64,000 bases of DNA from assembly GCA_002709075.1 (NCBI GenBank), contig PAPV01000014.1:479-64478 (forward strand), in the 5' to 3' direction. The stretch is from Rhodospirillaceae bacterium (lineage in GTDB: Bacteria; Pseudomonadota; Alphaproteobacteria; MPNO01; UBA2964). Below, one piece after another: positions 41,593 through 58,194 of the stretch (the stretch's first letter is position 1; each line of letters starts with the position of its first letter). Under the pieces are notes generated by a model, which saw only the letters and a list, made by a program, of their open reading frames with translations, did no database searches and was not told where the DNA came from. Position numbers and translations under genes: made by a program.

Positions 41593-42618
41593 TTAGATAA
41601 TTGTCCAAGTTCTACCATTGTGCATAAGGTTAGTTACGGTCATTGGGGAAGTTTGTTTTGTTGCTTCCTGAATTTGCAGATGAACAGCTTCTTCATAGGT
41701 TTTGTTCGGATTAGCATATATTACACCCATTGCCACAGGCCATTTCGGCGCTTGCATTTTCGCTAGCATAGAAGCGAGGACGCGATTTGTTCTGTCGTGA
41801 ACTAAAATATCTGTTTTTTTAACACCCTTGGGTCCAATAGTTACTATTTCAAGCTCGAGTTTTTCTTTATTAAGACGAAGTCCCTTTTCAGCGTCCTTTC
41901 CAAAAATAAGTGGTTTTCCGTGTTCGCAGAAAATTTGACCATCACTGCTGTTATTTTTTTCTGTGAAGGAAGAAAACACACCATCATTATAAACAATACA
42001 ATTTTGTAAAATTTCAACTAATGCAGCACCTTTGTGAGCTTTCGCCTCTGCTAATATATTTGGCAGGAGTTTTTGATCGGTATCGACACCACGAGCAACA
42101 AAAGTTGCATTGCAACCCATAGCAAATTGACAAGCAGATACTGGTGAGTCAATAGATCCTGTCGGTGTAGATGGCGATTTGGTGCCAATATCAGAGGTTG
42201 GGGAATATTGTCCTTTAGTTAGGCCGTATATCGAATTGTTGAATAAAAGAATTTGTAGGTCAATATTTCGTCGCAGTGCATGCAAAGTATGGTTGCCGCC
42301 AATAGATAGCATATCTCCGTCTCCACCGATTACCCAGACGTCGAGGTCAGGATTGCTTAATTTCACACCAGTCGCTACCGCAGGTGCTCTTCCGTGGATT
42401 GTATGAAAACCATATGTCTCCATGTAATAAGGAAATCGCGCAGCGCAGCCGATGCCAGAGATAAAGACGGTTTTAGCAGGGTCAGCTCCGTTATCTGAAA
42501 GTGCGCGCTGAACTCCCTTTAGAATGGCATAATCGCCGCAACCTGGACACCAACGAACTTCTTGATCGGAAGCAAAATCATTCGGTTTGAGTTCTTTATG
42601 TGGACTTTCATTTTTCAC
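41593..42618 (-). CDS. korB: 2-oxoglutarate/2-oxoacid:ferredoxin oxidoreductase beta subunit (TPP-binding)
   Basis: WCPGCGDYAIL, GGDGD, IYGLTKGQ motifs; ATGA-type 4-nt overlap with korA. Confidence 0.85.
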   Translation of the reverse strand: MKNESPHKELKPNDFASDQEVRWCPGCGDYAILKGVQRALSDNGADPAKTVFISGIGCAARFPYYMETYGFHTIHGRAPAVATGVKLSNPDLDVWVIGGDGDMLSIGGNHTLHALRRNIDLQILLFNNSIYGLTKGQYSPTSDIGTKSPSTPTGSIDSPVSACQFAMGCNATFVARGVDTDQKLLPNILAEAKAHKGAALVEILQNCIVYNDGVFSSFTEKNNSSDGQIFCEHGKPLIFGKDAEKGLRLNKEKLELEIVTIGPKGVKKTDILVHDRTNRVLASMLAKMQAPKWPVAMGVIYANPNKTYEEAVHLQIQEATKQTSPMTVTNLMHNGRTWTII

Positions 42619-44489
42619 TTTAAATTCTCCAATCGAGTCCTAATTTGGGCTTCAAGATCTGCTACTTTAAAAGGTTTACCATTAATTTGTGTAAATGACT
42701 CTGCTGCGATTAAATATTCAGCTTTTAAAAGTTTTACAAGTTGTCCATTATTTATTTCAGGGACTAGAATTTTTTCAAAATTTGAAAGCAGTTTGAATAT
42801 ATTTTTCGGCATGGGCCATATATGCCGGATATGCAATTGTGATACTTGTAACCCATCAGAACGACAACGGCGAACAGCTTGTTCGATCGCACCAAACGTT
42901 GACCCCCAACCCACAACAAGTAATTTTCCGGACTCCGCACCATTTGCGATTTCTTGATCGGGTATGTCATTGCTTATATTATTGATTTTTGCCGCACGAA
43001 CTTTTGTCATCTTGTGATGATTATCAGCATCGTAAGAAATATTTCCAGAATCATAATCTTTTTCAATTCCGCCTATGCGGTGCTCTAAACCCGGGGTTCC
43101 GGGCACCACCCACGGACGAGCAAGTGTTTGTTCATTACGATTATAAGGCTGAAAATCTGTTTTTTCGGTGTGAAAACTTACCGGAAACTCTTTAATATTC
43201 TCAACGTCTGGAATGCGCCACGGCTCGGCCGCATTCGCAAGATATCCTTCGTTTAAAAACATTACAGGTGTCATGTATTTAGTGGCTAATCGAACCGCCT
43301 CGACTGCGCACTCAAAGCAGTCTGATGGTGTAGATGCAGAAATAACCGGCATTGGTGTATCGCCGTTTCGTCCCCAAACGGCTTGTAGTAGATCAGACTG
43401 CTCCGTCTTGGTAGGCATACCTGTGGATGGCCCTGCTCTTTGAAAATTTATTATAACAAGTGGGAGTTCTGTCGAAACCGCTAGTCCCATAGCTTCCGTC
43501 TTAAGTGCAATACCGGGCCCGGAACTTGATGTAATACCCAAGCATCCGGAGAAGGATGCTCCAATAGCTGCGCAAATCGCAGATATTTCATCCTCTGCCT
43601 GAAATGTAATTACTCCATGTTCGCGCAGATTGCTGAGTGAATGTAAAAGGGGAGAGGCAGGGGTTATAGGGTATGAACCAAAAAATAATTTTAAACCAGT
43701 TTTTTCGGCGCCGGCAAGCAGGCCCCATGTTGTTGTTTCTATTCCTGTTACGGCGCGATAAATTCCAGGTTTTTTTTCTGCTTTTGGAACAATAAAGGTG
43801 GCTAAATCAGCTGAAATTTCAGCCGTTTCTCCATAAGAATGGCCTGCATTTAGAGCTGCTACATTTGCTTTAGCAATATTAGGACGGTCAGAAAAACGCG
43901 ACTCAAGCCATTCTAAAGTAGACTGCCTCTCTCGACCATACATCCAACACATTAAACCTAGTGTCCAGATATTTTTACAGCGAAGAGCATCGCGTTTGCT
44001 AAGGCCGAGGCCTTCCACGGAAGCAAGAGTAAGTTTTGATATATCAATTTTTATAGAACGAAAAAACTCAAGTGTATTATCTTCCAAAGGGTCTGTATCG
44101 TAACCGGCTTTTTTAATATTTCGCGGATTAAATGTACCCGTATTAACAATTACTAATCCGCTTGATGCTAAATCTGAGAGATGCACTTTTAATGCTGCTG
44201 GGTTCATAGCAACCAAAACATCAGGCCTGTCACCTGGGGTTTTAATACTATGCGAGGCAAAGTTTATTTGAAATGCTGAAACACCAAAAGTTGTTCCGAC
44301 CGGGGCACGTATTTCTGCTGGAAAATCCGGAAAAGTTGAAAGGTCATTACCCATCAGTGCTGTTGATTGCGTGAATTGAGTTCCCGTTAACTGCATACCA
44401 TCGCCGGAATCACCCGCAAAACGTATCACTACAGAGTCTAGAATCTCTCTTCCTTTGAAATTCGTGTCCAATTTTGTTGCCATTTTCAT
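42615..44489 (-). CDS. korA: 2-oxoglutarate/2-oxoacid:ferredoxin oxidoreductase alpha subunit (fused gamma-alpha)
   Basis: 624 aa; FAGDSGDGMQLTG, FPAEIRAP N-terminal gamma-type domain then pyruvate:flavodoxin OR core domains. Confidence 0.85.
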   Translation of the reverse strand: MKMATKLDTNFKGREILDSVVIRFAGDSGDGMQLTGTQFTQSTALMGNDLSTFPDFPAEIRAPVGTTFGVSAFQINFASHSIKTPGDRPDVLVAMNPAALKVHLSDLASSGLVIVNTGTFNPRNIKKAGYDTDPLEDNTLEFFRSIKIDISKLTLASVEGLGLSKRDALRCKNIWTLGLMCWMYGRERQSTLEWLESRFSDRPNIAKANVAALNAGHSYGETAEISADLATFIVPKAEKKPGIYRAVTGIETTTWGLLAGAEKTGLKLFFGSYPITPASPLLHSLSNLREHGVITFQAEDEISAICAAIGASFSGCLGITSSSGPGIALKTEAMGLAVSTELPLVIINFQRAGPSTGMPTKTEQSDLLQAVWGRNGDTPMPVISASTPSDCFECAVEAVRLATKYMTPVMFLNEGYLANAAEPWRIPDVENIKEFPVSFHTEKTDFQPYNRNEQTLARPWVVPGTPGLEHRIGGIEKDYDSGNISYDADNHHKMTKVRAAKINNISNDIPDQEIANGAESGKLLVVGWGSTFGAIEQAVRRCRSDGLQVSQLHIRHIWPMPKNIFKLLSNFEKILVPEINNGQLVKLLKAEYLIAAESFTQINGKPFKVADLEAQIRTRLENLK

Positions 44490-44535
44490 CCCTTATCTCC
44501 GATCTTTTTTGTGAATGGTCTCACTGATCAGTAGA

Positions 44536-44558
44536 TTGTTTGTGTACATACAATTATT
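44536..44558 (-). promoter_or_regulatory. 23-bp promoter/operator block upstream of korA (minus-strand reading AATAATTGTATGTACACAAACAA)
   Basis: 22/23 identical to 44670..44692 read on the plus strand; box ends 46 nt upstream of korA ATG; AATAAT is a plausible -10. Confidence 0.6.
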
Positions 44559-44646
44559 CAAATTTCTGATTTTCAATCCAACCTGTCAAGTCTGCTTGGA
44601 ATCAATATTTAAAAAAATGATACATATGTGTTTTTACCTCCTTTGC

Positions 44647-44675
44647 TTGACAGTATTCGCTGCTGATTGAATATT
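44647..44675 (+). promoter_or_regulatory. sigma70-like promoter for the 44739..48320 operon
   Basis: TTGACA (44647-44652), 17-nt spacer, AATATT (44670-44675). Confidence 0.5.
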
Positions 44676-44713
44676 TGTATGTACACAAACAAAAATTATA
44701 TGTACACAAACAA
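44670..44713 (+). promoter_or_regulatory. two direct TGTACACAAACAA boxes (44680-44692, 44701-44713), 21-bp phasing, putative operator
   Basis: Exact 13-mer repeated twice right after the putative -10 and 25 nt upstream of ATG 44739. Confidence 0.6.
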
Positions 44714-44738
44714 ATTGTACCGGGAATTTGGAGGCACC

Positions 44739-46226
44739 ATGGCGCAAATGAGAGAAAATAAAGATGATGGTTTGATACGATGCGATGCTTGTCCAGTGTT
44801 GTGCAGAATTCGTCCTGAAAAGACCGGTGCCTGCAATCGATACGGAAATTTTGAGGGCAAACTTACAAGAGTGGATCCAGTAGTAGTTGTACAAAAAGCG
44901 CTGGATGAAGATTGTGAACTTGTTCCATTTGCGAGAGCATCGGAGGAGTGGGACGGATCTCTGATAAGTCAAGCACCAACATTTTTGACTGGCATTGGAT
45001 CTACTACAACTTATCCTGACTATAAGCCTGCTCCTTTTATTGTGTCGAGCGATCAAGATGGTGTTGATATGGTTACTGTCGTCAGTGAGGGAGTTTTTTC
45101 ATATTGTGGTGTTAAGGTTAAAATCGATACTGATGCTTACATCGGTCCAGAGCCTGCTCCAATTAGAGTAAAAGGCGAGCAGGTTGGTCATGTAACCACC
45201 GCTGAATATGGCAGTCAAATGTTGGCAATTGGCGGTGTACGGCACTTGACCGGAGGAAGTAAAAAAGAAGGTATGGTGACCTGTAACACTATGATGCGAC
45301 TTTGCAATAAAGAACCAGTTGAAATGACTATTGATGGTGGTGCGAATATAATAGTTCAGGGAGGAGAGCCTCCAATTATTAATGGGTTTAAAGAAGAACG
45401 TATGCGGGTAGGGTGTGGCTCAGCAACAGTTGGAATATTTGCACCTCAATGGAAAGACCATGTGGATGAGGTAATAGTCGTAGATGATCATATTACGGCA
45501 GTTTTATCCGAGCATCAGGCGGGACAATTTCTTGATATGCCTCTAGCTGGAATCAGAGTAAGAGGACGTCGTTCTACGCTTGGTCGTTATTTTCAAGTTG
45601 CAGATCATGGGGCAGGTTGGGGAGGAACCGATGTTGAAGATCCATTAGATATAATAGAGAAGATTGATGAAGATATTGCTTGGCCAGGCCTACGATTGTT
45701 GATGGTATCCACAACTGGTCAGGATTCTGCTTGGTATGTTTTAGATGATAATCTCGCACCTCAACCGACTAAAATGCCCCAGGAGGTAAAACTAGTTGTT
45801 GATCGTATTGGTGAAAATTGCGAGCCAGCGTTGTGTACTGTGATGTTCATGGCAGGCGCAGGTGGCTCTTTAAGGGCTGGTGTAACTATTAATCCTGTGC
45901 ACTTAACCCGAAGTGTTCGTGCTTCAGAGACACAAGTAACATGCGGCGGAGCACCTGTATTTGTGTGGCCGGGTGGTGGTATTACTCTTTTGGTGGATGT
46001 GAACCAAATGCCAGATAATTCCTTCGGGTGGGTTCCCACGCCTGCATTAGTTGCTCCCATAGAGTTCACCGTGCGTCGTGATCTTTATGAACGAATTGGA
46101 GGTTATTCTGATAAGGTAAAAAATATTCATGATGTTATTTCTGAACTAGGAAATATTCGATCTGTTCCATGGCGGGAAAATCACCCATGGCCGCCAGAGG
46201 GCATGGCTCGCAAAGATAAGGTGTAA
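44739..46226 (+). CDS. Cys-rich protein of the family commonly auto-annotated as 6-hydroxynicotinate reductase
   Basis: 495 aa from ATG 44739 (GGAGG 4 nt upstream); N-terminal CDACPVLCRIRPEKTGAC cluster motif; family assignment is from memory and unverified. Confidence 0.55.
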   Translation: MAQMRENKDDGLIRCDACPVLCRIRPEKTGACNRYGNFEGKLTRVDPVVVVQKALDEDCELVPFARASEEWDGSLISQAPTFLTGIGSTTTYPDYKPAPFIVSSDQDGVDMVTVVSEGVFSYCGVKVKIDTDAYIGPEPAPIRVKGEQVGHVTTAEYGSQMLAIGGVRHLTGGSKKEGMVTCNTMMRLCNKEPVEMTIDGGANIIVQGGEPPIINGFKEERMRVGCGSATVGIFAPQWKDHVDEVIVVDDHITAVLSEHQAGQFLDMPLAGIRVRGRRSTLGRYFQVADHGAGWGGTDVEDPLDIIEKIDEDIAWPGLRLLMVSTTGQDSAWYVLDDNLAPQPTKMPQEVKLVVDRIGENCEPALCTVMFMAGAGGSLRAGVTINPVHLTRSVRASETQVTCGGAPVFVWPGGGITLLVDVNQMPDNSFGWVPTPALVAPIEFTVRRDLYERIGGYSDKVKNIHDVISELGNIRSVPWRENHPWPPEGMARKDKV

Positions 46227-46231
46227 GAAAA

Positions 46232-47101
46232 ATGTTTGATGGTGCTCAAGTATGCATGCTTCCTGATGGCAAGCGGCTTCATTTGTGCGAAGGACCCATT
46301 GATATCATTCTTGAGGCTTTTGGTCCTCCGAGCGAAATAACTGCAGCCTATAAACGTGCAGAGGTTTGTTTCCTTGATATTCTCTCTACACTAGTTGGTG
46401 AGTTATCTGATTTACGAAAACAGATAGGTGACCCAGAATGCTATCCCGTTGGTCCCGTTGCTAGAAGAATGTTTAACGCTTGTTGGCCTCATCGCAAATG
46501 TTTTGTAACTCCTATGGCAGCTGTAGCAGGTTCTGTGGCAGATGAAGTTTTGACATCATTATCTGCTTCAAAATGTCTTTCAAAAGCATATATCAATAAT
46601 GGGGGTGATATTGCATTTTACTTGGCGAAAGGGGAAAGTTTAACCGCCGGGATTGTAGGTGATTATCATCTTCCCCAGATTAACGCTACGTGTGCTTTTA
46701 CTTCGGATTCGCCTGTCCGTGGGATCGCAACTAGTGGTTGGAAGGGGCGTTCTTTTTCGTTGGGAATCGCGGATACCGTTTCTGTGCTTGCGGAAAATGC
46801 TGCGAAAGCAGATGTGGCAGCTACATTGATAGCTAATGCTGTTGATGTTGATCATCCATCGGTATCTCGTGTTTGTGCTCGTGAATTGGACCCCGATAGT
46901 GATTTAGAGAATCGTGCAGTGACGACAGGGGTAGGAAAACTTGAACCAGAGGTGGTAGAGGAGGCACTTAATCAGGGAGTAAAAACAGCAAAAATTATGC
47001 TTGCATCTGGACTAATTCACGCAGCAGTGTTGATATTAAACAATAAATATAAAATGGTCGGTGATATGCCGGCTGGTTTGTTGGCGGGAGAAAAACAATG
47101 A
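46232..47101 (+). CDS. UPF0280 family protein (ApbE superfamily fold)
   Basis: 289 aa; NNGGDI, GIATSG, ADVAATLIANAV resemble ApbE-fold signatures; 5 nt after upstream stop. Confidence 0.55.
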   Translation: MFDGAQVCMLPDGKRLHLCEGPIDIILEAFGPPSEITAAYKRAEVCFLDILSTLVGELSDLRKQIGDPECYPVGPVARRMFNACWPHRKCFVTPMAAVAGSVADEVLTSLSASKCLSKAYINNGGDIAFYLAKGESLTAGIVGDYHLPQINATCAFTSDSPVRGIATSGWKGRSFSLGIADTVSVLAENAAKADVAATLIANAVDVDHPSVSRVCARELDPDSDLENRAVTTGVGKLEPEVVEEALNQGVKTAKIMLASGLIHAAVLILNNKYKMVGDMPAGLLAGEKQ

Positions 47102-47733
47102 AAAATGTACGGAATATCAAAGATATACAAGTGCCACCTGCTGGTGATTTTGGAGAATTAGTAAAAATTCGCAAATATGTTTTGCATACAGAAGAAGTAC
47201 TACATGAGTTTGGACCGCCCGCTAACCCTCCGCAGTTGCGAGGCTTCATTGCGGCGGTAGCGGCTAATCCTTATGCTGGCGAGTATATTGAAGATCTTAT
47301 ACCTCTGATGGAAGCACTTAAACCATTGGGTTTGCTGATGGCAAAGCGGCTAGCGGACAGTCTTGGTGGAGCGGACAAGATTGTTGCCTATGGAAAATCG
47401 GCGCTGGTAGGTGAAGATGGAGAGCTTGAACATGCAGCACTGTGGCATGAACCAGGAGGCTACGGCATGCGTGAACTGATTAAACCATCAAAAGCCATTG
47501 TGCCATCTACAAAAAAGGTTGCGGGGCCGGGTCGGCCTTTAGATGTCCCTCTTGCTCATGTGAACGCAGCATATGTGCGTAGCCATTTTGATTGTGTAGA
47601 ATGTTGTATCGCTGATGCACCACGTCGTGACGAGGTTGTTTGGGTCCAGGCGATGGCAACTGGTCCTCGAATTTATGATCGGTCTGGTGGTCTATCGGCG
47701 GATGAAATAAAAGGAGAGGATGGATTACGCTAA
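47098..47733 (+). CDS. 'amino acid synthesis' family protein (PF06684/DUF1185), paralog 1
   Basis: 211 aa; YGKSALVGEDGELEHAA, DVPLAHVNAAYVRSHFD, DAPRRDE; ATGA overlap with upstream gene. Confidence 0.7.
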   Translation: MKNVRNIKDIQVPPAGDFGELVKIRKYVLHTEEVLHEFGPPANPPQLRGFIAAVAANPYAGEYIEDLIPLMEALKPLGLLMAKRLADSLGGADKIVAYGKSALVGEDGELEHAALWHEPGGYGMRELIKPSKAIVPSTKKVAGPGRPLDVPLAHVNAAYVRSHFDCVECCIADAPRRDEVVWVQAMATGPRIYDRSGGLSADEIKGEDGLR

Positions 47734-47735
47734 TA

Positions 47736-48320
47736 ATGAGGGTATCTCCTCGTAAAACTCATGTTTCCTGTGAGACCACTTATGTTGATGGAGGGAAAAA
47801 AGCAGAAATTCCCTCACGAAAGGCCGTTGCAATTGCTGTAATTGAAAACCCTTTTGCTAATAAATTTCATAAAAGACTTACTCAACTCGAAAATATTGGT
47901 GAATGGCTTGGGAAATACTTAGGGGAGTTGGCGGTAAATGCAATGAATGCGGCACCAAGTGAAATAGAGAGTTTTGGCAAGGCTGCTATTGTTGGAGAGA
48001 ATGGTGAGTTGGAGCATGCTGCTGCCATTTTGCACCCAAAATTGGGGCAACCTCTCCGTGAGGTGATGGGTGGTGGTCGAGCCCTTGTGCCTTCTGCAAA
48101 AAAATTGGGTGGACCTGGAATTCGTATCGATGTACCACTTGGTCATAAGAACGCAGCCTACGTTCGCAGCCATTTTGACTCAATTGAAGCTGGTTTGCCA
48201 GATGCGCCGCGCGCAAATGAAATTCTCGTGTGCGTAGCAGTGGCGGACTTCGGCAGACCTCATGCCCGGGTTGGCGGATTGAAAAAAGAGGATGTGGTTG
48301 GAAAAGACGGCTTAAAATGA
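47736..48320 (+). CDS. 'amino acid synthesis' family protein (PF06684/DUF1185), paralog 2
   Basis: 194 aa; FGKAAIVGENGELEHAAAILHPKLG, DVPLGHKNAAYVRSHFD, DAPRANE; 2 nt after upstream stop. Confidence 0.75.
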   Translation: MRVSPRKTHVSCETTYVDGGKKAEIPSRKAVAIAVIENPFANKFHKRLTQLENIGEWLGKYLGELAVNAMNAAPSEIESFGKAAIVGENGELEHAAAILHPKLGQPLREVMGGGRALVPSAKKLGGPGIRIDVPLGHKNAAYVRSHFDSIEAGLPDAPRANEILVCVAVADFGRPHARVGGLKKEDVVGKDGLK

Positions 48321-48954: not shown

Positions 48955-51291
48955 TTAGTTTTTTGCAGCTTGGATGGCTTCCCAGACGCGAGCTGGAGTA
49001 GCGGGTGCGTCAAGCTTTGTAACACCAACAGGGGCCAGTGCGTGCAGTATAGCGCACATTGATGCTGCCATAGATCCACCATTTCCCGCTTCCCCACAAC
49101 CTTTTACTCCTAAAGGGTTGGTGGTAGAGGGTACGTTGCGAGTTGAAAACGCTATATTGCAAAGATCATCGGCTCGAGGCATGCAGTAGTCCATGTAAGA
49201 CCCAGTAACAAGTTGTCCATTTTCATCATAGACAGTATTCTCAAGCAAAACTTGCCCAATACCTTGCATTATTCCTCCTTGTACTTGGCCCTCGACAACC
49301 AGAGGGTTAATTACTAACCCGAAGTCATCTACAACAGTATACCGGACAATTTCTGTAACTCCGGTTTCGGGATCAATTTCTACCTCACATATGTGACAAC
49401 CATTTGGGAATGATGAAGGACTGGTATCGTGAACTGCTTTGTCGTCTAGTGTGTCTGGAACATCTTTTGGCAAATTAATTTCAGATTGTAATCTTTTTGA
49501 TAGCTCTATTATACCGATTGATCGATCTGTTCCGGCTACAATAAAGTCACCTGCGGCAAATTCAATATCCTCTGCTGCAGCCTCAAGAAAATGTGCGGCA
49601 GCAATTTTTCCTTTTTCTGCAATCTTTGTGGCGCAGTCATTAATGGCATTTCCTGCCCCCAAAAGTGTTTTGGAGCCCCCAGATCCGCTGGCGCCCTTAC
49701 TCATAAGTTCTGAGTCATTTTGGATAACACGTATTTTTTCATATGGAACGCCCAGTTTGTCAGACAAAATCTGCGCAAAGGGGGTGCGATGACTTGTTCC
49801 CATGTCTTTTGCTCCAGTAATCAGTGCTACCGTGCCATCATCATGAAATCGAACATCACAAAGCTCTCCAGCGGCGCCCGTGTTTTCAAGATAAGGGGTT
49901 AGAGCAATACCGCATAATTTTCCACGTTGAGCAGCTTTTGCTCTTCGCTCTTCAAAACCAGCCCAATCCGCTTGTTTTAAACATTCATCCATCAACGCTT
50001 CAAATTCACCAGAATCATACTCTTGCCCGTTAGGAGTTTTCCAAGGGAATGACCCAGCTGGGATTAGATTTTTTCTTCGGATTTCAACCCTATCAAAGCC
50101 CATTTCGCTGGCTGCTTTATCAATTAGTTGCTCCAAAATATATTTGGATTCTGGACGCCCTGCACCGCGGTATGGTCCCGTAGGAACCGTGTTTGAAAAC
50201 ACGGCTTTTGTTCCGTAGGCAAAAGCGGGCGTTTTATACACACTGACCAAATTTCGGGAGATTACACCAGTGACTGGACCAGGACCCATAGCGGTTGAAT
50301 AAGCCCCCAAATTCCCAACACCCCCGCATCTGAGCGCCAAAAAATTTCCATCTTTATCCAAAGCCAATTCTGCACTTATAAGACTGTCACGACCCTGTTG
50401 GTCTGAGAGAAAACTCTCGGTCCTACTGGCTGTCCATTTTACTGTTCGGTTCAGCTTCCGGGAAGCATACATAACAGCGATAGGCTCTGCTAGACACGCA
50501 CCTTTCATGCCAAAAGAACCGCCCACATCATTGGAAAGAATACGAATTTTTTCATCTTTCATTTTGAAAATTGCTTTAGCTAACTGCGATCTCATTCCAA
50601 CGACACCTTGCGTTGGCAGAGTTACAGTGAATTTGTCCAAGTGCGAGTCGTATTCGGCTATAACAGCTCGTGGTTCCATTGCATTTACCACCATACGGGT
50701 AGATAAAACACGAATACTGCTTACATGGTCGGCTTCCTCAAATGCCTGGTCGCAGGCTTTCTGATCTCCAGTAAAATAGTCAAGGCAAATGTTATTTTCT
50801 GCTTCGTCCCATAGTTGAACAGCACCATCTTGAAGCGCATCCCACGCCTCAACAGTTACTTTTTCTGGCAGAATATCTACTGCTACTAATTCAGCTGCTT
50901 CTTCTGCAAGCGCTGCAGTTTCTGCAATAACAACTGCTATTATTTCACCAACGTGTCGAACCCGACCTTCAGCCATCCCACAACGAGGAGGTACAAAGTA
51001 GGGGGATCCGTCCCGATTTTTGATTGGCATGTTTGATGGAATGTCTCCCACGCTATCGGCTCGCAAATCCTCCGCAGTATAAATTGCCAACACACCAGGC
51101 ATTTCCAAAGCTGTACATATCTTTATTGATTTAATTATCCCGTGGGCAACCTGACTGCGAACAAAACGCGCATAGAGTTGCCCGTCCGCGGAATAATCAT
51201 CCGTGTATTCCCCGCCACCAGTCAGAAGTCGAGGATCCTCTGATCGATAAACAGGTTGCCCAATACCAAAATTTAGCGGTATCCTACTCAT
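48955..51291 (-). CDS. xanthine dehydrogenase/aldehyde oxidase family molybdopterin-binding large subunit (CoxL-like, non-CO-dehydrogenase type)
   Basis: 778 aa; GQPVYRSEDPRLLTG N-terminus, GSFGMKG, GPYRGAGRPE active-site loop; 8-nt overlap with hyuB. Confidence 0.85.
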   Translation of the reverse strand: MSRIPLNFGIGQPVYRSEDPRLLTGGGEYTDDYSADGQLYARFVRSQVAHGIIKSIKICTALEMPGVLAIYTAEDLRADSVGDIPSNMPIKNRDGSPYFVPPRCGMAEGRVRHVGEIIAVVIAETAALAEEAAELVAVDILPEKVTVEAWDALQDGAVQLWDEAENNICLDYFTGDQKACDQAFEEADHVSSIRVLSTRMVVNAMEPRAVIAEYDSHLDKFTVTLPTQGVVGMRSQLAKAIFKMKDEKIRILSNDVGGSFGMKGACLAEPIAVMYASRKLNRTVKWTASRTESFLSDQQGRDSLISAELALDKDGNFLALRCGGVGNLGAYSTAMGPGPVTGVISRNLVSVYKTPAFAYGTKAVFSNTVPTGPYRGAGRPESKYILEQLIDKAASEMGFDRVEIRRKNLIPAGSFPWKTPNGQEYDSGEFEALMDECLKQADWAGFEERRAKAAQRGKLCGIALTPYLENTGAAGELCDVRFHDDGTVALITGAKDMGTSHRTPFAQILSDKLGVPYEKIRVIQNDSELMSKGASGSGGSKTLLGAGNAINDCATKIAEKGKIAAAHFLEAAAEDIEFAAGDFIVAGTDRSIGIIELSKRLQSEINLPKDVPDTLDDKAVHDTSPSSFPNGCHICEVEIDPETGVTEIVRYTVVDDFGLVINPLVVEGQVQGGIMQGIGQVLLENTVYDENGQLVTGSYMDYCMPRADDLCNIAFSTRNVPSTTNPLGVKGCGEAGNGGSMAASMCAILHALAPVGVTKLDAPATPARVWEAIQAAKN

Positions 51292-53041
51292 CCCGGGGTT
51301 TCTCCAAATTTTCTATCAAGATTTTGCGTTTTTTATTAGTTTTAACTATATTTGCTTTGCCGCTTTTATCTATACAGACGCCAAAAAGTTCTTCTGCTTG
51401 CAGTTCCGTGTAGTAACCCCGTTTCACATCACTTTGTACCAGACTTATATCTCGTTCGCATGGATTACCATAGCCACCACCACCAGGAGTTGAAACTCTA
51501 ACAGTATCATTCTGATTTACCTCGATATCTTGGTCTTTTGATAGATGTGGCGGTATGTAATCTACACCATTTTGGCTGATCACAACCCTGTTAACGCCGC
51601 CATTCGCTCCACCAAGTACCCCTAACGGTCCTGTTCGCCCATGATCCATAACCATCGAAGCTCTTGCCTCACCTCTCTGGAGTCTAATTTTGTAGTTTAC
51701 TCCAAATCCTCCTCGATATTTTCCGGCTCCTCCGGACCCTTCATGAAGTGAAAATTCTTCAAAAATAACTGGGTAATATTGTTCCATAACCTCTATGGGA
51801 GTTGTTTTTGATATTCCAATTGTTGAGCAACCATTCGAGATACCATCCCCAAAATTACTTCCACCATAACCACCACCAGATATGACATACATTACGTAGG
51901 GTCGATCTTTTTCTGGATCAACACCACCAAGACAGAAATTCCCACTTGTACCTGCAGGCGCGGCAAAAAGTTTGTTGGGTATAGCTTCCACTAATGCTAC
52001 GAATACGGCCTCTGCGATGCGTTGACTAACTTCTGCAGCACAACCAGAAACTGGACGTGGATATTCTGCATATAGAAAAGTTCCCTTTGGATCATGAATA
52101 TGAAGTGGGTCAAATGTGCCTGCATTTATTGGTACATCAGGAAAAATGTGTTTCATAGCCAAATATATTGAAGATCTCGTGGTAGCAATCACAGAATTCA
52201 TTGGTCCAAGGCAAGGTGGACTGGAGTCCGACATATCAAAATATAATTCAGTTCCCTCGCAACGAATCTTCATTTTAATTTCCAGAGGTTTGTCCACTAC
52301 ACCATCGGAGTCAACAAATGCACTTCCATTGTATTCACCATCAGGGATATCATTAATGCATGCTCTCATTTGCTGTGCTGCCCGTTCGCGCAGTTCCTCA
52401 ATTGCTTGTTTAACTGTTTGTACGCCGTACCGTTCCAGCAATACCTCGAAGCGTTTTTCTCCAACAGTCAGAGCTGCAGCCTGTGCCTTTATATCTCCTA
52501 TACGTTGATCAGCGATCCTTATGTTTGAAAGCACTATTGAGAGTATTTCTTTATCTATAACGCCCTCTTTATATAGTTTAACTGGCGGCAACCTCAATCC
52601 TTCCTGCTCGACCTCAGTCGCACTTGCAGAAAAACCACCAGGTACAGATCCACCTGTGTCTGGCCAATGACCAGTGTTGGCCAACCATGCGAAAAGTTCT
52701 CCCTGATAAAAAAATGGTTTTACGAAGCGTACATCCATTAGATGTGTTCCGCCCAGATATGGGTCATTTACAATATAAACATCACCAGCTTTAGCATTTT
52801 TCGCTCTTTCGATTACACATTTAGTGCCAAACTGCATTGTTCCTACAAACACCGGCAAACCTAATTCCCCTTGGGAAATTAAATCTCCGTTTTCTGGATG
52901 ATAAATGCCATCTGACCTATCCAAAGCCTCTGAAATTACTGGACTAAATGCAGACCTTACAAACGCGAGATCCATCTCATTGCAAACCTGCTGAAGACCC
53001 GATTGAATAACGGCTAATGTAACGGGGTCTAGCGAACTCAT
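51284..53041 (-). CDS. hyuB: hydantoinase B/oxoprolinase family protein
   Basis: 585 aa; DPVTLAVIQSGL, NDPYLGGTHLMD, GGGYG motifs. Confidence 0.8.
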   Translation of the reverse strand: MSSLDPVTLAVIQSGLQQVCNEMDLAFVRSAFSPVISEALDRSDGIYHPENGDLISQGELGLPVFVGTMQFGTKCVIERAKNAKAGDVYIVNDPYLGGTHLMDVRFVKPFFYQGELFAWLANTGHWPDTGGSVPGGFSASATEVEQEGLRLPPVKLYKEGVIDKEILSIVLSNIRIADQRIGDIKAQAAALTVGEKRFEVLLERYGVQTVKQAIEELRERAAQQMRACINDIPDGEYNGSAFVDSDGVVDKPLEIKMKIRCEGTELYFDMSDSSPPCLGPMNSVIATTRSSIYLAMKHIFPDVPINAGTFDPLHIHDPKGTFLYAEYPRPVSGCAAEVSQRIAEAVFVALVEAIPNKLFAAPAGTSGNFCLGGVDPEKDRPYVMYVISGGGYGGSNFGDGISNGCSTIGISKTTPIEVMEQYYPVIFEEFSLHEGSGGAGKYRGGFGVNYKIRLQRGEARASMVMDHGRTGPLGVLGGANGGVNRVVISQNGVDYIPPHLSKDQDIEVNQNDTVRVSTPGGGGYGNPCERDISLVQSDVKRGYYTELQAEELFGVCIDKSGKANIVKTNKKRKILIENLEKPRDE

Positions 53042-55083
53042 TTGGTAATCTCCGTATCAATATTCATTATAATATTGCCAAAAATATCAGTGTACATATT
53101 ATCTTTGGGTTCCATAATTACGGTTGTATCGCTTTGTTCAAGGATAGCAGGGCCTTGCAAAGTTGTTTCTAGTGGCATTGCCTCTCTATTGTAAATAGGT
53201 GTTTCTGTGCGGCCACCTTCAAACCAAACCAGGCGGGCCCCGGTTTGCGCTTTTTCAATTCTGTTTGTTCGCATTTTAATATCCATGAGATTAGAAAGTT
53301 CGACCTGTTTGCGCTTTCCAATTACCGCAGTGTGCAAATTTACAACGACCGGTCGGATCTCATCGAGTTCAACGGCAAATCTGTTCCAATATGCTGATGC
53401 AAAAGCATCATGGAGTTTCCGCTTCGTAATGTTTTTATTTACGGAAACGGTAAGAATATGTGTTTGTCCTTGAAATTGCATATCGATATCGTGAAAAATA
53501 ATGATATCTTCCACCTCTATACCTTCTGCATTAATCGTCTCTTGGCCACGCGTTTCTTGTTCTGTGAAAATCGCTGAAATTTCTTCCATGTTTGCTTCGA
53601 CCAAAGATTTATTAATCGTATTAACGTAGTCATGTCGAACATCGGCCACTACACAACCCACTGCATTTGTAATGCCTGGTCTTGCCGGAACTAGAACTTT
53701 TGGAATACCCAGTTCACGAGCGAGTGCGGCTGCGTGCAGAGGACCAGCTCCACCAAAGGGAAATAAAGCAAAGTCTCTTGGATCATGTCCTCTAGCAAGG
53801 GAGACAATTCTGAGAGCACCGGCCATTTTTGTATTGGCAATTTGTATTATCGCAGCAGCCGCTTCCTCAGGAGAATTTAAACCCAGAGGTTCACTGATTT
53901 TTTTTGTAAATATATCAATTATTTTATCAAGTCCAATATCAGAATTTGCCATAATTTCTGGATTTAGCCGTCCCAGTAGCATATTCGCATCTGTTATCGT
54001 CGGCTGCACACCACCGCGGCCATAACAAATAGGTCCTGGCACTGCACCGGCACTCTCTGGGCCCACTTCCAACAGGCCAGCAGGGGTTATAGCCGCGATT
54101 GACCCGCCACCAGCACCAATTGTTCGCACATCGACCATAGGAACGTGAATGGGCATCGCATACTCGATTTCTAATTCTGAGGAAACTTGGGGTATGCCGT
54201 TTTTGATAAGCGCCACATCACAACTTGTTCCACCCATATCACAGGTAATAACATTATCATATCCAGCGCTTTTTGCTGTGTAGGCGGCGGCCATCACGCC
54301 TGAGGCTGGTCCAGACATAACGGTGTTAACAGCGGTTTCGGAAATTAATTTGGATGATACCGTACCACCATTGCCCTGCATTACTAGCAAATCATGGACA
54401 TAGCCTCGGTCTTTTAGTTCATTCCTAAGCTTCTTTATATAATTGTCCAAAACCGGTTGGATCGCTGCATTTATCATCGCCGTAGTTCCACGTTCATATT
54501 CGCGAAATTCAGACATTACAGCGCTTCCACGAGTAATAAAGTCGTTCGGCCAAATCTCTCTCACAACCTGTTCTGCATGTTTTTCATTAGTATCATTGAC
54601 ATATGAATGAAGAAAGTGAATCACGATGGAGTCAACTCCCATATCGAGCAATCTTTGTGCTGCTTTTCGGACATCATTCTCATCCAAGGCTGTTATGATT
54701 TGCCCGTTTGCGCCAATTCGTTCTGACGCCTCCAAACGCCTTTCTCGCGGTATCAAGCATTCAAAACTGCCTGTGAGTCCGTATGGGTTCGGTCTTGTTC
54801 GACGACCAAGTTCAAGCGAGTCCCGAAAACCTAGGGTTGTTATGAGTCCACATTTTGCGATTTTTCGTTCTAAAAGGGCATTAGTAGTAACCGTTGTTCC
54901 ATGCACTATGGTGTGAATAGAAGCTGGTTGAACACCTCCTTCAGTTATTGCTGACAGAACTCCAAATGCCTGATTTTCCGGAGTTGAAGGCACTTTAGCA
55001 ATTTTTACTGTGCCCGTCTCGTCATCTAGAATTATTAAATCGGTAAAAGTACCACCTACATCCACTCCTACAATTCGGCTCAT
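53038..55083 (-). CDS. hyuA: hydantoinase A/oxoprolinase family protein (ATP-binding, ASKHA fold)
   Basis: 681 aa; GVDVGGTFTD, DMGGTSCD, GAGGGSIA motifs; 4-nt overlap with hyuB. Confidence 0.8.
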   Translation of the reverse strand: MSRIVGVDVGGTFTDLIILDDETGTVKIAKVPSTPENQAFGVLSAITEGGVQPASIHTIVHGTTVTTNALLERKIAKCGLITTLGFRDSLELGRRTRPNPYGLTGSFECLIPRERRLEASERIGANGQIITALDENDVRKAAQRLLDMGVDSIVIHFLHSYVNDTNEKHAEQVVREIWPNDFITRGSAVMSEFREYERGTTAMINAAIQPVLDNYIKKLRNELKDRGYVHDLLVMQGNGGTVSSKLISETAVNTVMSGPASGVMAAAYTAKSAGYDNVITCDMGGTSCDVALIKNGIPQVSSELEIEYAMPIHVPMVDVRTIGAGGGSIAAITPAGLLEVGPESAGAVPGPICYGRGGVQPTITDANMLLGRLNPEIMANSDIGLDKIIDIFTKKISEPLGLNSPEEAAAAIIQIANTKMAGALRIVSLARGHDPRDFALFPFGGAGPLHAAALARELGIPKVLVPARPGITNAVGCVVADVRHDYVNTINKSLVEANMEEISAIFTEQETRGQETINAEGIEVEDIIIFHDIDMQFQGQTHILTVSVNKNITKRKLHDAFASAYWNRFAVELDEIRPVVVNLHTAVIGKRKQVELSNLMDIKMRTNRIEKAQTGARLVWFEGGRTETPIYNREAMPLETTLQGPAILEQSDTTVIMEPKDNMYTDIFGNIIMNIDTEITK

Positions 55084-55106
55084 AATTTACCTTCCTGCGC
55101 AAAGAT

Positions 55107-55125
55107 TCATTCGTGTACATATAAT
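55107..55125 (-). promoter_or_regulatory. related box upstream of hyuA (minus-strand reading ATTATATGTACACGAATGA)
   Basis: ATTATATGTACAC is 13/13 identical to 44695..44707; lies 23-41 nt upstream of hyuA ATG (55083). Confidence 0.45.
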
Positions 55126-55423
55126 AATGTATGGATGAAATAAAGGCAGCAATGCTATCTGATTATTTTCTGAGCCGAAAATGAAAGAAGTGCATTTTTA
55201 AAATAAAGTGGTTGTCAGTAAAAATGTTATTGTAGGTGCTATTCAATATTTAATGATATTTTGAGTTTGTTCTGGATATAAAATTATTTTAAAAGCTGTC
55301 CCAGCAGCTTGTTATCCCAAACTTAATCTTGTTGTTTCTGGATTGTAGTTTTTGCAATGATTTTATACATTCAAAGAAAAGGCTAGTCGTGTATAATGTA
55401 GTTTTTTAACATTTGTTCGCTCG

Positions 55424-55921: not shown

Positions 55922-55925
55922 AAAT

Positions 55926-56654
55926 TCATTTTGTTTTCAATTTGTTATGGTGGGTTTTTTTACCCCCATTATGTAGTTTCGAAATAATATCATCAGTAAG
56001 CATTACGTCGGCAAAATGAGTATACATAGAGTTTATTGAGGCTTCATGTGCTTTTGGGTTGGATGCAGCGCAAGAATCCTCTGCGACAAGCACATCATAA
56101 TTTAACATCATCGCATCTCTTACTGTTGACTCAACACAGACATTTGTGACAATTCCGCAAATGATTAAGAGCTCAATCCCGTGTTCCCCTAGAACCTTCT
56201 CAATATTGGAAGACCCTTTAGCGAAAGCAGAAAACCGTGATTTATTTATTTTTCGATCACTGCTTCGAATATCTAAATGATCAAACAATTTGAAACCTAA
56301 GCCATCCTTTGAAAGTTCAGTTCTGCGGTAGTTCAAACGTTCTTGTGTTAGATGTCCATAGAAAGCAGACCAATCTTTTACATCCTTATTAGTAAAAATA
56401 TTGCGAAGCCAAATTACTGGAGCGCCAATGTTCCGAAATGTTCCTGCAAGCCGGTTAATATTAGGCACAATTTCCAAAGCAAACGGGCAGAAATTTGTTG
56501 ACCCATCGAGTAAATAAAAGTTTTGCATATCCACAATAACAAGCGCTGTTTCAGTCGGTTTTATTTCGGTTAGACGACCTGACAGACCAAATTGTTTTTG
56601 GTTTCTCTGGATGCTTTCTTGCCAAAGCACGCTCTGATTGACAGGGCTTTTCAA
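55926..56654 (-). CDS. isochorismatase-like cysteine hydrolase
   Basis: TALVIVDMQNFY, SRFSAF, GIVTNVCVESTVRDA (catalytic Cys) motifs. Confidence 0.8.
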   Translation of the reverse strand: MKSPVNQSVLWQESIQRNQKQFGLSGRLTEIKPTETALVIVDMQNFYLLDGSTNFCPFALEIVPNINRLAGTFRNIGAPVIWLRNIFTNKDVKDWSAFYGHLTQERLNYRRTELSKDGLGFKLFDHLDIRSSDRKINKSRFSAFAKGSSNIEKVLGEHGIELLIICGIVTNVCVESTVRDAMMLNYDVLVAEDSCAASNPKAHEASINSMYTHFADVMLTDDIISKLHNGGKKTHHNKLKTK

Positions 56655-56697
56655 AAAATAGCTCCCAAAATTTTTACAAACAAGTATTAATCAACGT

Positions 56698-57399
56698 TTA
56701 TACTGCGGCAGCAACTATTGTGCATTCATTTAAGAGTGTTAACACTTGTTGTGTGTCCTGAACATCCCCAAATTGCAGGTAAAATTGGTTTAATGTTGCG
56801 TTGTGCAGGCTATCATCAGGCGCAGCATTTGCATCGGAAATCATCATTGTTCTGAAATTTAGCATCATGGCATCACGAGCAGTTGACTCGCAGCAGGTGC
56901 AGGTGGAGACTCCTGTTATAAGTACAGTATCGATTTCCCGTCTCCGCAGTTCTTCCTCTAATTTTGATGGGGAAGGAATGAATGCTGAATATCGAGTTTT
57001 CGGAATTATGGGATCTTCTTCTTTAACATCTAAACCTGGCCAAAGATCAAAACCGGATCCGCCAGGTTTCATGCCCTCAACACGTTTTTTGGTGCCTTCG
57101 TCGGTCATTCTTTCATAATATGCAGACCAATGTTCGACGGAGTCTGGGCCTGAATGAGTTTGTATCCATATCACCGAGCCCCCTGCACGTCGGGTAGCAG
57201 CTGCTAAGAGATTAATATTTGGGACTATATCCCTTGCAACCGGGCATTCCGAGGGTTGCCCTGCTTCGACAAAATAAAGTTGCATGTCTACAACTATAAG
57301 TGCGGTTTTTGGTCCCTCCAGTGAAGTCACAGTGTGTTTTCGACCAGAGCGACGTTTAACACGCTCAATATATTCCGGTTTTATGGAAACTTTATGCAT
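56698..57399 (-). CDS. isochorismatase-like cysteine hydrolase, tandem paralog
   Basis: TALIVVDMQLYF, TRYSAF, GVSTCTCCESTARDA motifs. Confidence 0.8.
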   Translation of the reverse strand: MHKVSIKPEYIERVKRRSGRKHTVTSLEGPKTALIVVDMQLYFVEAGQPSECPVARDIVPNINLLAAATRRAGGSVIWIQTHSGPDSVEHWSAYYERMTDEGTKKRVEGMKPGGSGFDLWPGLDVKEEDPIIPKTRYSAFIPSPSKLEEELRRREIDTVLITGVSTCTCCESTARDAMMLNFRTMMISDANAAPDDSLHNATLNQFYLQFGDVQDTQQVLTLLNECTIVAAAV

Positions 57400-57456
57400 T
57401 CATTCCTCCATCATTAATTTTCTTTTAACATTAAGCGGCAGATTAGTCATTACATG

Positions 57457-58194
57457 CTATACACTACCCCCTCCACTTACGCTTATAACCTCTCCTGTTA
57501 CGAAACGCGCTGCGTCGGAAATTAAAAATTTTGCTACTTCTGCAACGTCATCCGGTTCTGCTATCCTTCCCAGCATAGAGCGATTTGCTGCAGCCTCACG
57601 GGCTGAGTTGCTATATTCAGCAATCATTGGTGTTGAGGTCGCTCCGGGACTCACTGTATTAACACGTATTTTATGGGGGCCTAAGGCTCGGGCAAGAGAT
57701 CGATTTAAACCATATATTGCCGCTTTTGAAGTTACATAGGCGGGCCCACCGCGTCCGGAACCTCCACCGACACCGCTTGCTTGTACCGAACCGGATGACG
57801 TAAGCACTATAGAACCGCCACCATTAGATTTCATATATTCGCCTGCAGCTTTAGCAATATGAAAAGAACCCAAAACATTTATCTCATGGACTTTCAAAAA
57901 TTTTTCAGATGAAATTTCTTCCCATGTGTCTGTGGAGTGAATTGCGGCGAAATGGCACACAGAATCTACCGATCCGAAAAACTCTGCTGTTCGGGTTACG
58001 GCACTCCGGCATGCATCAAGGTCAGACACATCTATAGTTAGAGGTAAACAGGAATTAGTGTATTGGGTGAGTGTTTCTGGGATAGGGTATATGTCGACTG
58101 CAGTGACGTTAAAGCCATCCCGTAGTAGTGAGGCAGAACAGGCATGTCCAATTCCTCTGCGTGCTCCGGTAACTATAATAGTTTTAGTTGGCAT
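57457..58194 (-). CDS. SDR family oxidoreductase
   Basis: TGARRGIGHA, YVTSKAA catalytic motif, 245 aa. Confidence 0.85.
   Translation of the reverse strand: MPTKTIIVTGARRGIGHACSASLLRDGFNVTAVDIYPIPETLTQYTNSCLPLTIDVSDLDACRSAVTRTAEFFGSVDSVCHFAAIHSTDTWEEISSEKFLKVHEINVLGSFHIAKAAGEYMKSNGGGSIVLTSSGSVQASGVGGGSGRGGPAYVTSKAAIYGLNRSLARALGPHKIRVNTVSPGATSTPMIAEYSNSAREAAANRSMLGRIAEPDDVAEVAKFLISDAARFVTGEVISVSGGGSV

Follow-up and report, generated by a model that had tools for sequence, protein, structure and literature searches.

We examined a stretch of 64,000 nucleotides from a Rhodospirillaceae bacterium (GenBank assembly GCA_002709075.1, contig PAPV01000014.1, positions 479–64,478; hereafter the window, which is contig C14 of our source genome G000), and in it a locus which carries a homolog of the 6-hydroxynicotinate reductase Hnr close to a HyuA–HyuB pair of hydantoinase-type proteins. 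The source assembly is 2.52 Mb and 99.9% complete, and gene families were called from the open reading frames (ORFs) and from Pfam and NCBIfam scans of the window (Table 1). Positions 41593–58194 hold four blocks of genes, namely korA–korB on the minus strand, a divergent hnr–UPF0280–DUF1185 operon on the plus strand and then, again on the minus strand, a hyuA–hyuB–L operon which ends in the L subunit of a molybdenum (Mo) hydroxylase, and a string of SDR, Iso2 and Iso1 genes, the latter two encoding isochorismatase-like cysteine hydrolases. An initial annotation made from the letters of this DNA alone had proposed that these genes form a hybrid route for the breakdown of a pyridine or related N-heterocyclic carboxylate, and all of the families which it named were found here and in the flanks.

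Table 1. Genes and regulatory sites of the locus and its flanks, in window coordinates.
Feature	Position	Strand	Evidence and remarks
korB	41593-42618	-	2-oxoacid:ferredoxin oxidoreductase; 4-bp overlap with korA
korA	42615-44489	-	2-oxoacid:ferredoxin oxidoreductase
Operator, three copies	44536-44553, 44675-44692, 44696-44713		divergent kor/hnr spacer
Hnr homolog, 495 aa	44739-46226	+	ATG at 44739 preceded by GGAGG; homologs named 6-hydroxynicotinate reductase
UPF0280	46232-47101	+	NF003322, 355 bits vs cut-off 290
AAs1, DUF1185/AA_synth (PF06684)	47098-47733	+	Pfam, 216 bits
AAs2, DUF1185/AA_synth (PF06684)	47736-48320	+	Pfam, 218 bits
Mo-hydroxylase L subunit	48955-51291	-	Pfam; last in hyuA-hyuB-L operon, 8-bp overlap with hyuB
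hyuB	51284-53041	-	Pfam; 4-bp overlap with hyuA
hyuA	53038-55083	-	Pfam
Weak operator-like site	55107-55124	-	24 bp upstream of hyuA start
ORF, 165 aa	55424-55921	+	hydrophobic N-terminus, no family match
Iso1, isochorismatase-like cysteine hydrolase	55926-56654	-	Pfam, 129 bits
Iso2, isochorismatase-like cysteine hydrolase	56698-57399	-	Pfam, 132 bits
SDR oxidoreductase	57457-58194	-	Pfam; first of SDR-Iso2-Iso1 string
GcdH	38333-39553	+	three acyl-CoA dehydrogenase domains (Pfam)
Family-III CoA-transferase	39569-40792	+	CoA_transf_3, 439 bits
MarR-family regulator	40849-41337	+	MarR Pfam match
Operator	26537-26554		upstream of UbiD1
UbiD1	26594-28159	+	UbiD-family decarboxylase
Other UbiD genes	at 31449, 33017 and 62753		flanks of locus
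TctA-family transporter, 717 aa	58793-60946		
pdxJ-acpS-lepB-rnc-era-recO gene order, alphaproteobacterial in type	5.8-10.3 kb		

Searches of the source genome with tblastn recovered 22 matches to the Mo-hydroxylase L subunit, 27–29 to the UbiD queries and five HyuAB pairs, and because copies of L, UbiD and HyuAB are so many in a genome of 2.52 Mb, the co-occurrence of these families is weak evidence. Matches to the 2Fe-2S small subunit (Fer2_2) numbered eight, all of them off contig C14, and the excess of L over small-subunit matches (~22 vs 8) indicates that many of the L subunits in this genome are orphans. This is a caution for such small genomes more generally, as many of their orphan Mo L and UbiD genes are unassignable by family name alone. 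Since family content was uninformative, we tested the conservation of gene arrangement instead. Hnr is found in 54 of 61 related genomes, from which we fetched the ±20 kb around it in 20 relatives; a second set comprised 80 Hnr loci from named genomes, including 44 with full ±10 kb flanks, and a third comprised 13 loci from anaerobes (Desulfobacterota, Clostridiaceae and Peptoniphilaceae) with a ferredoxin-fused Hnr, which we used as a stand-in for the Eubacterium barkeri cluster.

The arrangement is conserved beyond the chance co-occurrence of families. KorBA lies 2–8 kb upstream of Hnr in all 20 relatives, an ortholog of the L subunit (≥55% identity) is present in 16 of them (it is absent from one early-ending contig and from three genomes of another family), the GcdH and CoA-transferase pair is also syntenic in 16/20, and an Iso2 ortholog is found in 14/20, with the SDR gene syntenic with Iso2 within the window's own family. 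The family-wide order can be written as SnoaL–amidohydrolase_2–Rieske–GcdH–CoA-transferase–MarR–KorBA<>Hnr–UPF0280–DUF1185–L–(ring-opener)–Iso1–Iso2–SDR<>TctA–flavoprotein–UbiD. We note that the minus-strand string is broken between Iso1 and hyuA by a 165-aa ORF on the plus strand, whose conservation in two relatives is as low as 38–40%, and that the gene for the TctA-family transporter, syntenic with the locus across the family, extends some 250 aa beyond the Pfam domain and has no adjoining gene for a TctC-type binding protein.

Hnr has more than 8000 homologs, and those with names are called '6-hydroxynicotinate reductase' by NCBI; a library-wide search returned 1209 clusters at E ≤ 0.001, no Pfam family covers the protein, and no PDB sequence matched it at E ≤ 1. 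Amino acid identities are 64% with the proteins of Bradyrhizobium japonicum and B. rifense, 61–62% with those of Rhodopseudomonas palustris and Rhodopseudomonas sp., and 60–61% with that of Xanthobacter, and the reductase-like module of the initial annotation is built around a homolog of the E. barkeri-type enzyme (61–64% to the Bradyrhizobium and Rhodopseudomonas Hnr). In an alignment of 17 full-length members Cys15, Cys18, Cys22 and Cys32 are invariant; the window Hnr is without the N-terminal 2x[4Fe-4S] domain, which in this alignment is present only in relatives of 36–44% identity.

The genes around Hnr recur well outside the order. Among the 80 named loci UPF0280 is present in 72, in each case directly after Hnr, a DUF1185 gene and a FAD subunit in 51 each, a fused 2Fe-2S/Mo subunit in 60 and a MarR homolog in 40 (with 52% identity in the B. 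japonicum cluster). The 13 anaerobe loci carry an enamidase (12/13), the hydroxylase (11/13), UPF0280 (8/13, again directly after Hnr) and DUF1185 (5/13), and neither HyuAB (0/13) nor KorA (0/13); as the same set surrounds the ferredoxin-fused Hnr in Desulfobacterota, Clostridiaceae and Peptoniphilaceae, the Hnr cassette is old and crosses phyla. In B. japonicum, genes for a 2Fe-2S subunit and a Mo/cytochrome c subunit are divergent from Hnr–UPF0280–DUF1185–ABC transporter–MarR, and an enamidase is nearby. An excerpt of PMC3511419 describes a nicotinate cluster acting via 6-oxo-1,4,5,6-tetrahydronicotinate (THON) for Azorhizobium caulinodans, B. japonicum, R. palustris and strain SG-6C, and states that SG-6C grows on nicotinate and 6-hydroxynicotinate, that its Hnr shares 42% identity with that of E. 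barkeri, and that the Azorhizobium route proceeds via THON to glutarate. From the annotation of the B. japonicum locus, the two 'unknown' proteins mentioned in that excerpt are very probably UPF0280 and DUF1185. The window locus is therefore a widespread variant of this described Azorhizobium/Bradyrhizobium-type cluster rather than the one-off hybrid first supposed, and because of this its substrate, which the initial annotation had regarded as impossible to deduce, can be narrowed by cluster orthology to nicotinate or 6-hydroxynicotinate as the leading candidate.

The main departure from the described clusters is the ring-opener. HyuA and HyuB form a full-length adjacent pair with Hydantoinase_A (including its N and C regions) and Hydantoinase_B domains (Pfam; 299, 175, 36 and 537 bits), and in the NCBIfam scan the caprolactamase (CapAB) models came top at 338 and 527 bits against cut-offs of 1000, which places the pair outside any of the curated substrate-defined subfamilies there (caprolactamase CapAB, acetophenone carboxylase). 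No enamidase gene was found in the window by Pfam. In one relative (G010) the HyuAB slot between the L subunit and Iso1 is filled instead by an amidohydrolase which matches the E. barkeri enamidase (PDB 2VUN) over its full length (E 1.6e-107), and the two types of ring-opener were never seen together: within ±20 kb, four of the 20 relatives have HyuAB, ten have an enamidase and six have neither (two of these at contig ends). Among the 80 named Hnr loci there were 30 with a HyuAB ortholog (≥50% identity), 19 with an enamidase, 31 with neither (25 on truncated loci) and none with both, and among the 44 with full flanks the corresponding numbers were 23, 15, 6 and 0. Many of the named genomes have hyuAB directly between the hydroxylase and hnr, or immediately after UPF0280. 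Cultivated bacteria with the HyuAB type of locus include Methylobacterium ajmalii, Falsiroseomonas algicola, Roseomonas nitratireducens and Chthonobacter albigriseus.

An Hnr tree of 53 rows, with 44 labelled by ring-opener and 9 unlabelled, requires eight changes of label, at least five of which are forced by well-supported branches; shuffling the labels gave a mean of 13.7 changes and in 0/500 shuffles a number as low as eight, and the addition of two corrected labels left the number at eight. A HyuB tree (29 rows) placed the window HyuB in a long-stemmed clade with 100% support which contains all 16 of the Hnr-linked HyuB proteins sampled, and from which the other four HyuB paralogs of the source genome (28–33% identity) are excluded. 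At the genomic level, a dedicated HyuAB clade has displaced the non-orthologous enamidase, and in this sense HyuAB is the counterpart of the amidohydrolase that opens the ring in E. barkeri, as the initial annotation had it. Our search of the literature outside supplementary files, in part through excerpts, returned no paper on HyuAB in nicotinate clusters or on THON as a substrate of the HyuA/HyuB family.

The first step of the pathway is probably encoded elsewhere in this genome. The chains of known structure closest to the window L subunit are CoxL (8UEM), 6-hydroxypseudooxynicotine dehydrogenase (7DQX) and quinoline 2-oxidoreductase (1T3Q). Its sequence includes a PYRGAGR loop, and the Glu of its KGCGEAG motif, which we take to be the catalytic Glu, aligns with the Glu of the G-E motif in all three. 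Neither an S (2Fe-2S) nor an M (FAD) subunit of a Mo hydroxylase was found on contig C14. Directly upstream of Hnr, the order's other families have genes for a FAD subunit and for a fused 2Fe-2S/Mo subunit, and the source genome has retained the orthologs of this pair on a different contig (C12:81902-85482; 50% identity for the FAD subunit and 61% for the fused S/L subunit, with a match of 1158 bits vs 245 for the next in the genome). The C12 pair would, judging from these matches, be the nicotinate hydroxylase. A window-type L subunit coexists with the Hnr-adjacent pair in genomes such as G027, and it is unlikely from these comparisons that the window L subunit is the first-acting enzyme, the role in which the initial annotation had cast it; it could serve in the oxidation of an aldehyde intermediate, in a second ring hydroxylation or in some other reaction.

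An 18-bp near-palindromic operator, TTGTATGTACACAAACAA, occurs three times in the spacer between kor and hnr, and one of these copies abuts a TTGACA-17-AATATT promoter (our promoter and terminator scan was no richer than shuffled sequence, with 46 vs 43.3 and 20 vs 17.5, and of its output only this operator-abutting promoter was used). A further copy lies upstream of UbiD1, and a weak operator-like site (TTATATGTACAC plus 6 nt) precedes hyuA, with three mismatches to the 18-mer pattern and the first 12 nt the same as those of the third hnr-promoter site. The 13-mer core of the operator occurs exactly four times in the source genome. In five relatives there are 2–3 operator sites per genome (≤1 mismatch), compared with none for a reversed-pattern control, and in all five the sole site outside of the kor/hnr spacer is found ~40 bp ahead of the UbiD1 ortholog (87–88% identity), which is 48–60 kb from hnr in the three relatives with both on one contig. 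UbiD1 itself matches no curated UbiD subfamily; orthologs are found in 22 of 24 genomes of the window's family at 73–96% identity (84–96% in 21 of these), and in 3/15 and 1/14 genomes of the other Hnr-bearing families. MarR is likely to be the repressor of the locus, and from the position of these sites we propose that, acting on the 18-bp operator, it would control korAB, the hnr operon and ubiD1.

Of 13 relatives inspected within the family, eight have kept the operator in the spacer, three have an altered form of it, and G002 and G003 have none. These two same-genus relatives (loci L012-L015) also have no detectable MarR gene beside korB and have kept the Hnr/HyuAB locus, and they are not the closest by Hnr identity as G004 is closer at 86%. 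In another relative the UbiD1 ortholog is split and contains two in-frame TGA codons (G019:C4:358979-360326), which may be either a broken gene or an assembly error. In the source genome the operator also occurs, as a perfect palindrome and the fourth exact site, some 60 bp before etfB–etfA–hbd, the last of which encodes a 3-hydroxyacyl-CoA dehydrogenase (C2:72468-72485; L214:5468-5485), and this would fit with the GcdH branch; we rejected these genes as conserved members of the regulon, as the sites in the five relatives are found only at the kor/hnr spacer or at ubiD1, and the ubiD1-side loci are without etf genes.

KorA was assigned by TIGR03710 (633 bits vs a cut-off of 483) and KorB falls just under the cut-off of TIGR02177 (255 vs 262 bits), and KorAB is present as a single copy in the source genome (tblastn). 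As the window Hnr has no built-in ferredoxin domain, an external low-potential donor would be needed, and a ferredoxin-generating KorAB, included in the reductase module by the initial annotation, could possibly feed it. It cannot be counted as a dedicated part of that module, a role which we rejected because KorA is present in 59 of the 61 relatives, including all four genomes of a genus without Hnr; KorAB is rather a core enzyme of the order which may have been co-opted for Hnr. A 441-aa Pyr_redox_2 flavoprotein is encoded between MarR and korB in 19/20 relatives (e.g. L003:5325-6650), and it is missing from this position in the window (41337–41593), with no tblastn match anywhere in the source genome.

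The structure predicted for UPF0280 by AlphaFold (pLDDT 93.6) is ApbE-like in fold. Foldseek gave DVU1097/DUF375 as the best match (E 3.5e-12), followed by the flavin transferases ApbE, Ftp and FmnB (E 4e-6 to 4e-4), with modest TM-scores of 0.33–0.48 for the listed ApbE/Ftp/FmnB chains and up to 0.53 for the Ftp entry 4XDT; at E ≤ 0.001 the protein has no Pfam family, and hence no ApbE membership by sequence. The E. barkeri Hnr bears a covalently bound flavin, and because of this and the ApbE-like model we propose that UPF0280 might be a maturation factor which transfers the flavin to Hnr.

The relatives of DUF1185 in the PDB (3BYQ and 2QTP) are of unknown function. An excerpt of PMC2954203 gives a tentative link between DUF1185 and amino-acid metabolism which is based on neighbouring ABC transporter genes of the branched-chain type. 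A transporter of the same kind is found inside the B. japonicum nicotinate cluster, and the name 'AA_synth' looks misleading. The AAs2-type DUF1185 gene accompanies the enamidase in 15/15 of the full-flank loci and HyuAB in 1/23 (with the family rows added, enamidase loci are 19 with and 0 without AAs2, and HyuAB loci 3 with and 24 without); we do not regard the link as established, as there are only five independent contrasts (sign test p 0.125–0.25). Three HyuAB loci, that of the window among them, still keep AAs2, and in the window this may reflect a recent swap from enamidase to HyuAB.

The flanking genes are consistent with a route that ends in glutarate. The best PDB matches of GcdH are glutaryl-CoA dehydrogenases (3GNC at 597 bits and the human 1SIR at 577 bits), it is a single-copy gene with the next match in the source genome only 28% identical (tblastn), and the top family for the CoA-transferase is the succinate–glutarate CoA-transferase NF052585 SucGlutTfsCaiB (511 bits, under the cut-off of 750). 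By these matches the pair would fit a C5-dicarboxylate product, as the initial annotation had anticipated, as well as the Azorhizobium route through glutarate. For that route, Kitts and colleagues are said to have reported in 1992 that ring hydrolysis with release of ammonia is followed by decarboxylation and oxidation to glutarate, and then reportedly by CoA transfer from succinyl-CoA and the conversion of glutaryl-CoA to crotonyl-CoA. Iso1 and Iso2 have an Asp42/Lys138/Cys173 triad which is invariant in six aligned sequences, and they are present at enamidase-type loci too. Both proteins are below the cut-offs of the RutB (87 and 69 vs 378 bits), nicotinamidase (41 and 26 vs 174 bits) and also the biuret hydrolase families, and no NicF family was among their matches in the NCBIfam scan, so that orthology with NicF is not shown.

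Taken together, these comparisons suggest that the locus degrades nicotinate or 6-hydroxynicotinate reductively, in the manner of E. barkeri and Azorhizobium and with HyuAB as the ring-opener, a reading to which we assign a probability of about two in three; all functional statements on the locus are comparative. Nicotinate would be converted to 6-hydroxynicotinate by the FAD and fused 2Fe-2S/Mo subunits encoded on C12, and this would be reduced to THON by Hnr, as judged by homology and the conserved cluster, with the adjacent and co-regulated KorAB as a candidate source of low-potential electrons and with the flavin of Hnr attached by the ApbE-like UPF0280. HyuAB, which we infer to hydrolyse THON with ATP, would then open the lactam ring, and loss of ammonia from the resulting enamine would yield 2-formylglutarate. 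Decarboxylation and oxidation would lead from this to glutarate, for which the candidates are the orphan Mo L subunit, the SDR, the two cysteine hydrolases and UbiD1, and the CoA-transferase and GcdH would, by family assignment, take glutarate to crotonyl-CoA. The swap of ring-opener may have been favoured because ATP hydrolysis would render ring opening irreversible. The initial annotation was right in kind and is partly supported.

Several observations do not sit easily with this reading. The first-step hydroxylase is outside of the locus in the window's family, and the published pathway has no need of several genes which the locus adds, namely those for an orphan L subunit, two amidases, an SDR and a co-regulated UbiD. 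The substrate of HyuAB is not given by family membership, as the pair is far under the caprolactamase cut-offs, and the only enamidase-like gene of the source genome is a paralog (39–42%) in a Mo-hydroxylase cluster on contig C5. Hnr is found in 54/61 genomes of the order at 68–86% identity, which is unusual for an accessory catabolic gene. KorA is present in 59/61 relatives, including 4/4 genomes of the genus without Hnr, and outside the close relatives only six of the 80 named loci have it beside Hnr. The converse comparison, made from HyuB, is weaker: among 80 loci with a HyuB ortholog (70–83% identity), Hnr is within 10 kb in 27, or in 17 of the 41 with full flanks, and none has an enamidase. 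In several others UPF0280 lies right where the flank ends. Reyranella-type loci (L178-L213; e.g. L193:7585-11698) have a lone HyuB, 72–73% identical to that of the window, which is divergent from an ortholog (~50% identity) of the window L subunit with no HyuA or Hnr nearby. Finally, we found no experiment on the source organism or on any HyuAB-type cluster, and no direct genetics on the alphaproteobacterial genes.

The part played by UbiD1 and the L subunit bears on whether nicotinate is the entry compound at all, and the same enzyme logic might instead serve another N-heteroaromatic acid, such as a pyridine dicarboxylate or a different hydroxypyridine carboxylate, with UbiD1 and/or the orphan L subunit making the substrate of Hnr. 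The loss from the locus of the usual Hnr-adjacent hydroxylase in the window's family would be explained in this way, as would the placing of UbiD1 under the locus operator in the window and 5/5 relatives, the confinement of most UbiD1 orthologs to this family (22/24 vs 3/15 and 1/14), a conservation of UbiD1 which is greater than that of Hnr (73–96%, and 84–96% in 21/22 genomes), and an L subunit of the N-heterocycle-hydroxylase/CoxL-II type which has an intact catalytic Glu and is translationally coupled to hyuB. We nevertheless consider another entry acid to be unlikely, as Hnr, UPF0280, DUF1185 and MarR are all orthologous to those of nicotinate-assigned clusters, the source genome has retained an ortholog of the nicotinate-type hydroxylase, and a dicarboxylate substrate is unsupported by the sequence, with UbiD1 in no curated UbiD subfamily.

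It is improbable that hyuA–hyuB–L and SDR–Iso2–Iso1 are a separate lactam or amide pathway, one taking for example a valerolactam-like compound to glutarate, which lies beside Hnr and shares with it only the glutarate end. The 24 of 41 full-flank HyuB-ortholog loci without Hnr within 10 kb would be expected of such a pathway, as would the Reyranella-type pairing of HyuB with an L ortholog away from Hnr, and GcdH and the CoA-transferase could be used by any route ending in glutarate. Against this, none of 100 loci has HyuAB and enamidase together, the two fill the same slot between L and Iso1 in sister genera, the swap has recurred at least 5–8 times on the Hnr tree, hyuAB is directly between the hydroxylase and hnr or after UPF0280 in many named genomes, and Iso2 and L are also present at enamidase-type loci. 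The breadth of Hnr (54/61) and KorA (59/61) amongst the relatives, both as single-copy genes with 65–86% identity, might suggest that Hnr, UPF0280, DUF1185 and KorAB are a housekeeping redox module of the order with no catabolic role, and the tentative tie of DUF1185 to amino-acid metabolism in the excerpt of PMC2954203 points the same way; this tie however rested on ABC transporter genes of a kind which also lie within the nicotinate cluster of B. japonicum, Mo hydroxylases and an enamidase or HyuAB accompany the cassette across phyla, and one entire genus of the order is without it (0/4 for Hnr), and we find the housekeeping explanation hardly credible. Reductive degradation of nicotinate or 6-hydroxynicotinate accounts best for the conserved arrangement and for the exchange of ring-openers within it.

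A more detailed version of this would be that an undescribed activity, the ATP-driven hydrolysis of THON by a dedicated clade of HyuAB, has taken over from the enamidase on five or more occasions among aerobic Proteobacteria, in most cases together with loss of the DUF1185 paralog which goes with enamidase, and that in the window's family a MarR regulon combines a UPF0280-flavinylated, ferredoxin-domain-less Hnr, powered by a 2-oxoglutarate:ferredoxin oxidoreductase in an aerobe, with UbiD and the orphan L subunit decarboxylating and oxidising the product to glutarate. We offer this joint version tentatively and doubt that every part of it will hold; if true, it would give the first functions to UPF0280 and DUF1185. 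The recurrent replacement of enamidase by HyuAB, the ApbE-like companion of Hnr and the MarR-type regulon of korAB, hnr and UbiD could not be found in print. To our knowledge, the turnover of nicotinate (vitamin B3) by bacteria is known from few model organisms, and we know of biochemistry for the reductive route only in E. barkeri and of physiology in Azorhizobium. HyuAB outnumbers enamidase (23 vs 15) in the 44 full-flank proteobacterial Hnr loci, so that the HyuAB family is predicted to act on a new substrate, and the analysis provides a testable context for UPF0280/DUF375 and DUF1185, both widespread families of unknown function, as well as a defined operator and predicted regulon. We also note that the source genome has a second N-heterocycle-type cluster (contig C5:156001-176000, locus L053), which contains two complete M–S–L Mo hydroxylases, the enamidase paralog (39–42% identity), an isochorismatase-like gene, an SDR, a UbiD and an MFS transporter.

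The locus can be compared with four known systems. The nic genes of Pseudomonas putida (NicAB, NicC, NicX, NicD and NicF), which are cited in PMC13510662, specify an oxidative route via 2,5-dihydroxypyridine and maleamate and are controlled by a MarR-type regulator; the window would share with them the passage from nicotinate via 6-hydroxynicotinate, a MarR-type regulator and an isochorismatase-like amidase, but no NicC-type monooxygenase or NicX-type dioxygenase was seen by Pfam in 41593–58194. For the nicotinate fermentation of E. barkeri, Alhapel and colleagues are said to have described the genes for Ndh, Hnr and the enamidase in 2006. The logic of the first three steps would be the same, and the anaerobe-type loci which we fetched carry hydroxylase–enamidase–Hnr–UPF0280–DUF1185, whereas the window Hnr is without the N-terminal 2x[4Fe-4S] domain, the ring-opener is HyuAB, and the predicted route leads to glutaryl-CoA with no genes of the 2-methyleneglutarate mutase branch seen in the window. 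The ATP-dependent HyuA/HyuB hydrolases of lactams and hydantoins (caprolactamase, 5-oxoprolinase and N-methylhydantoinase) have the same full-length Hydantoinase_A/_B architecture, and the window pair differs from them in scoring one third to one half of the cut-offs and in belonging to a clade of its own which is tied to Hnr. The closest likeness is with the cluster of A. caulinodans ORS571, B. japonicum (blr3818-3830) and SG-6C, in which Hnr (61–64% identity), UPF0280, DUF1185 and MarR are orthologous and in the same order, and the CoA-transferase and GcdH of the window match the published glutarate route. The hydroxylase of this type of cluster is itself variable, with a NicAB-like 2Fe-2S subunit and a Mo/cytochrome c subunit in B. 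japonicum and a FAD subunit and a fused S/L subunit in most other loci. The window locus differs in having HyuAB where these clusters have an enamidase and in being without the hydroxylase and the ABC transporter, and it adds KorAB, the orphan L subunit, two cysteine hydrolases, the SDR and a co-regulated UbiD.

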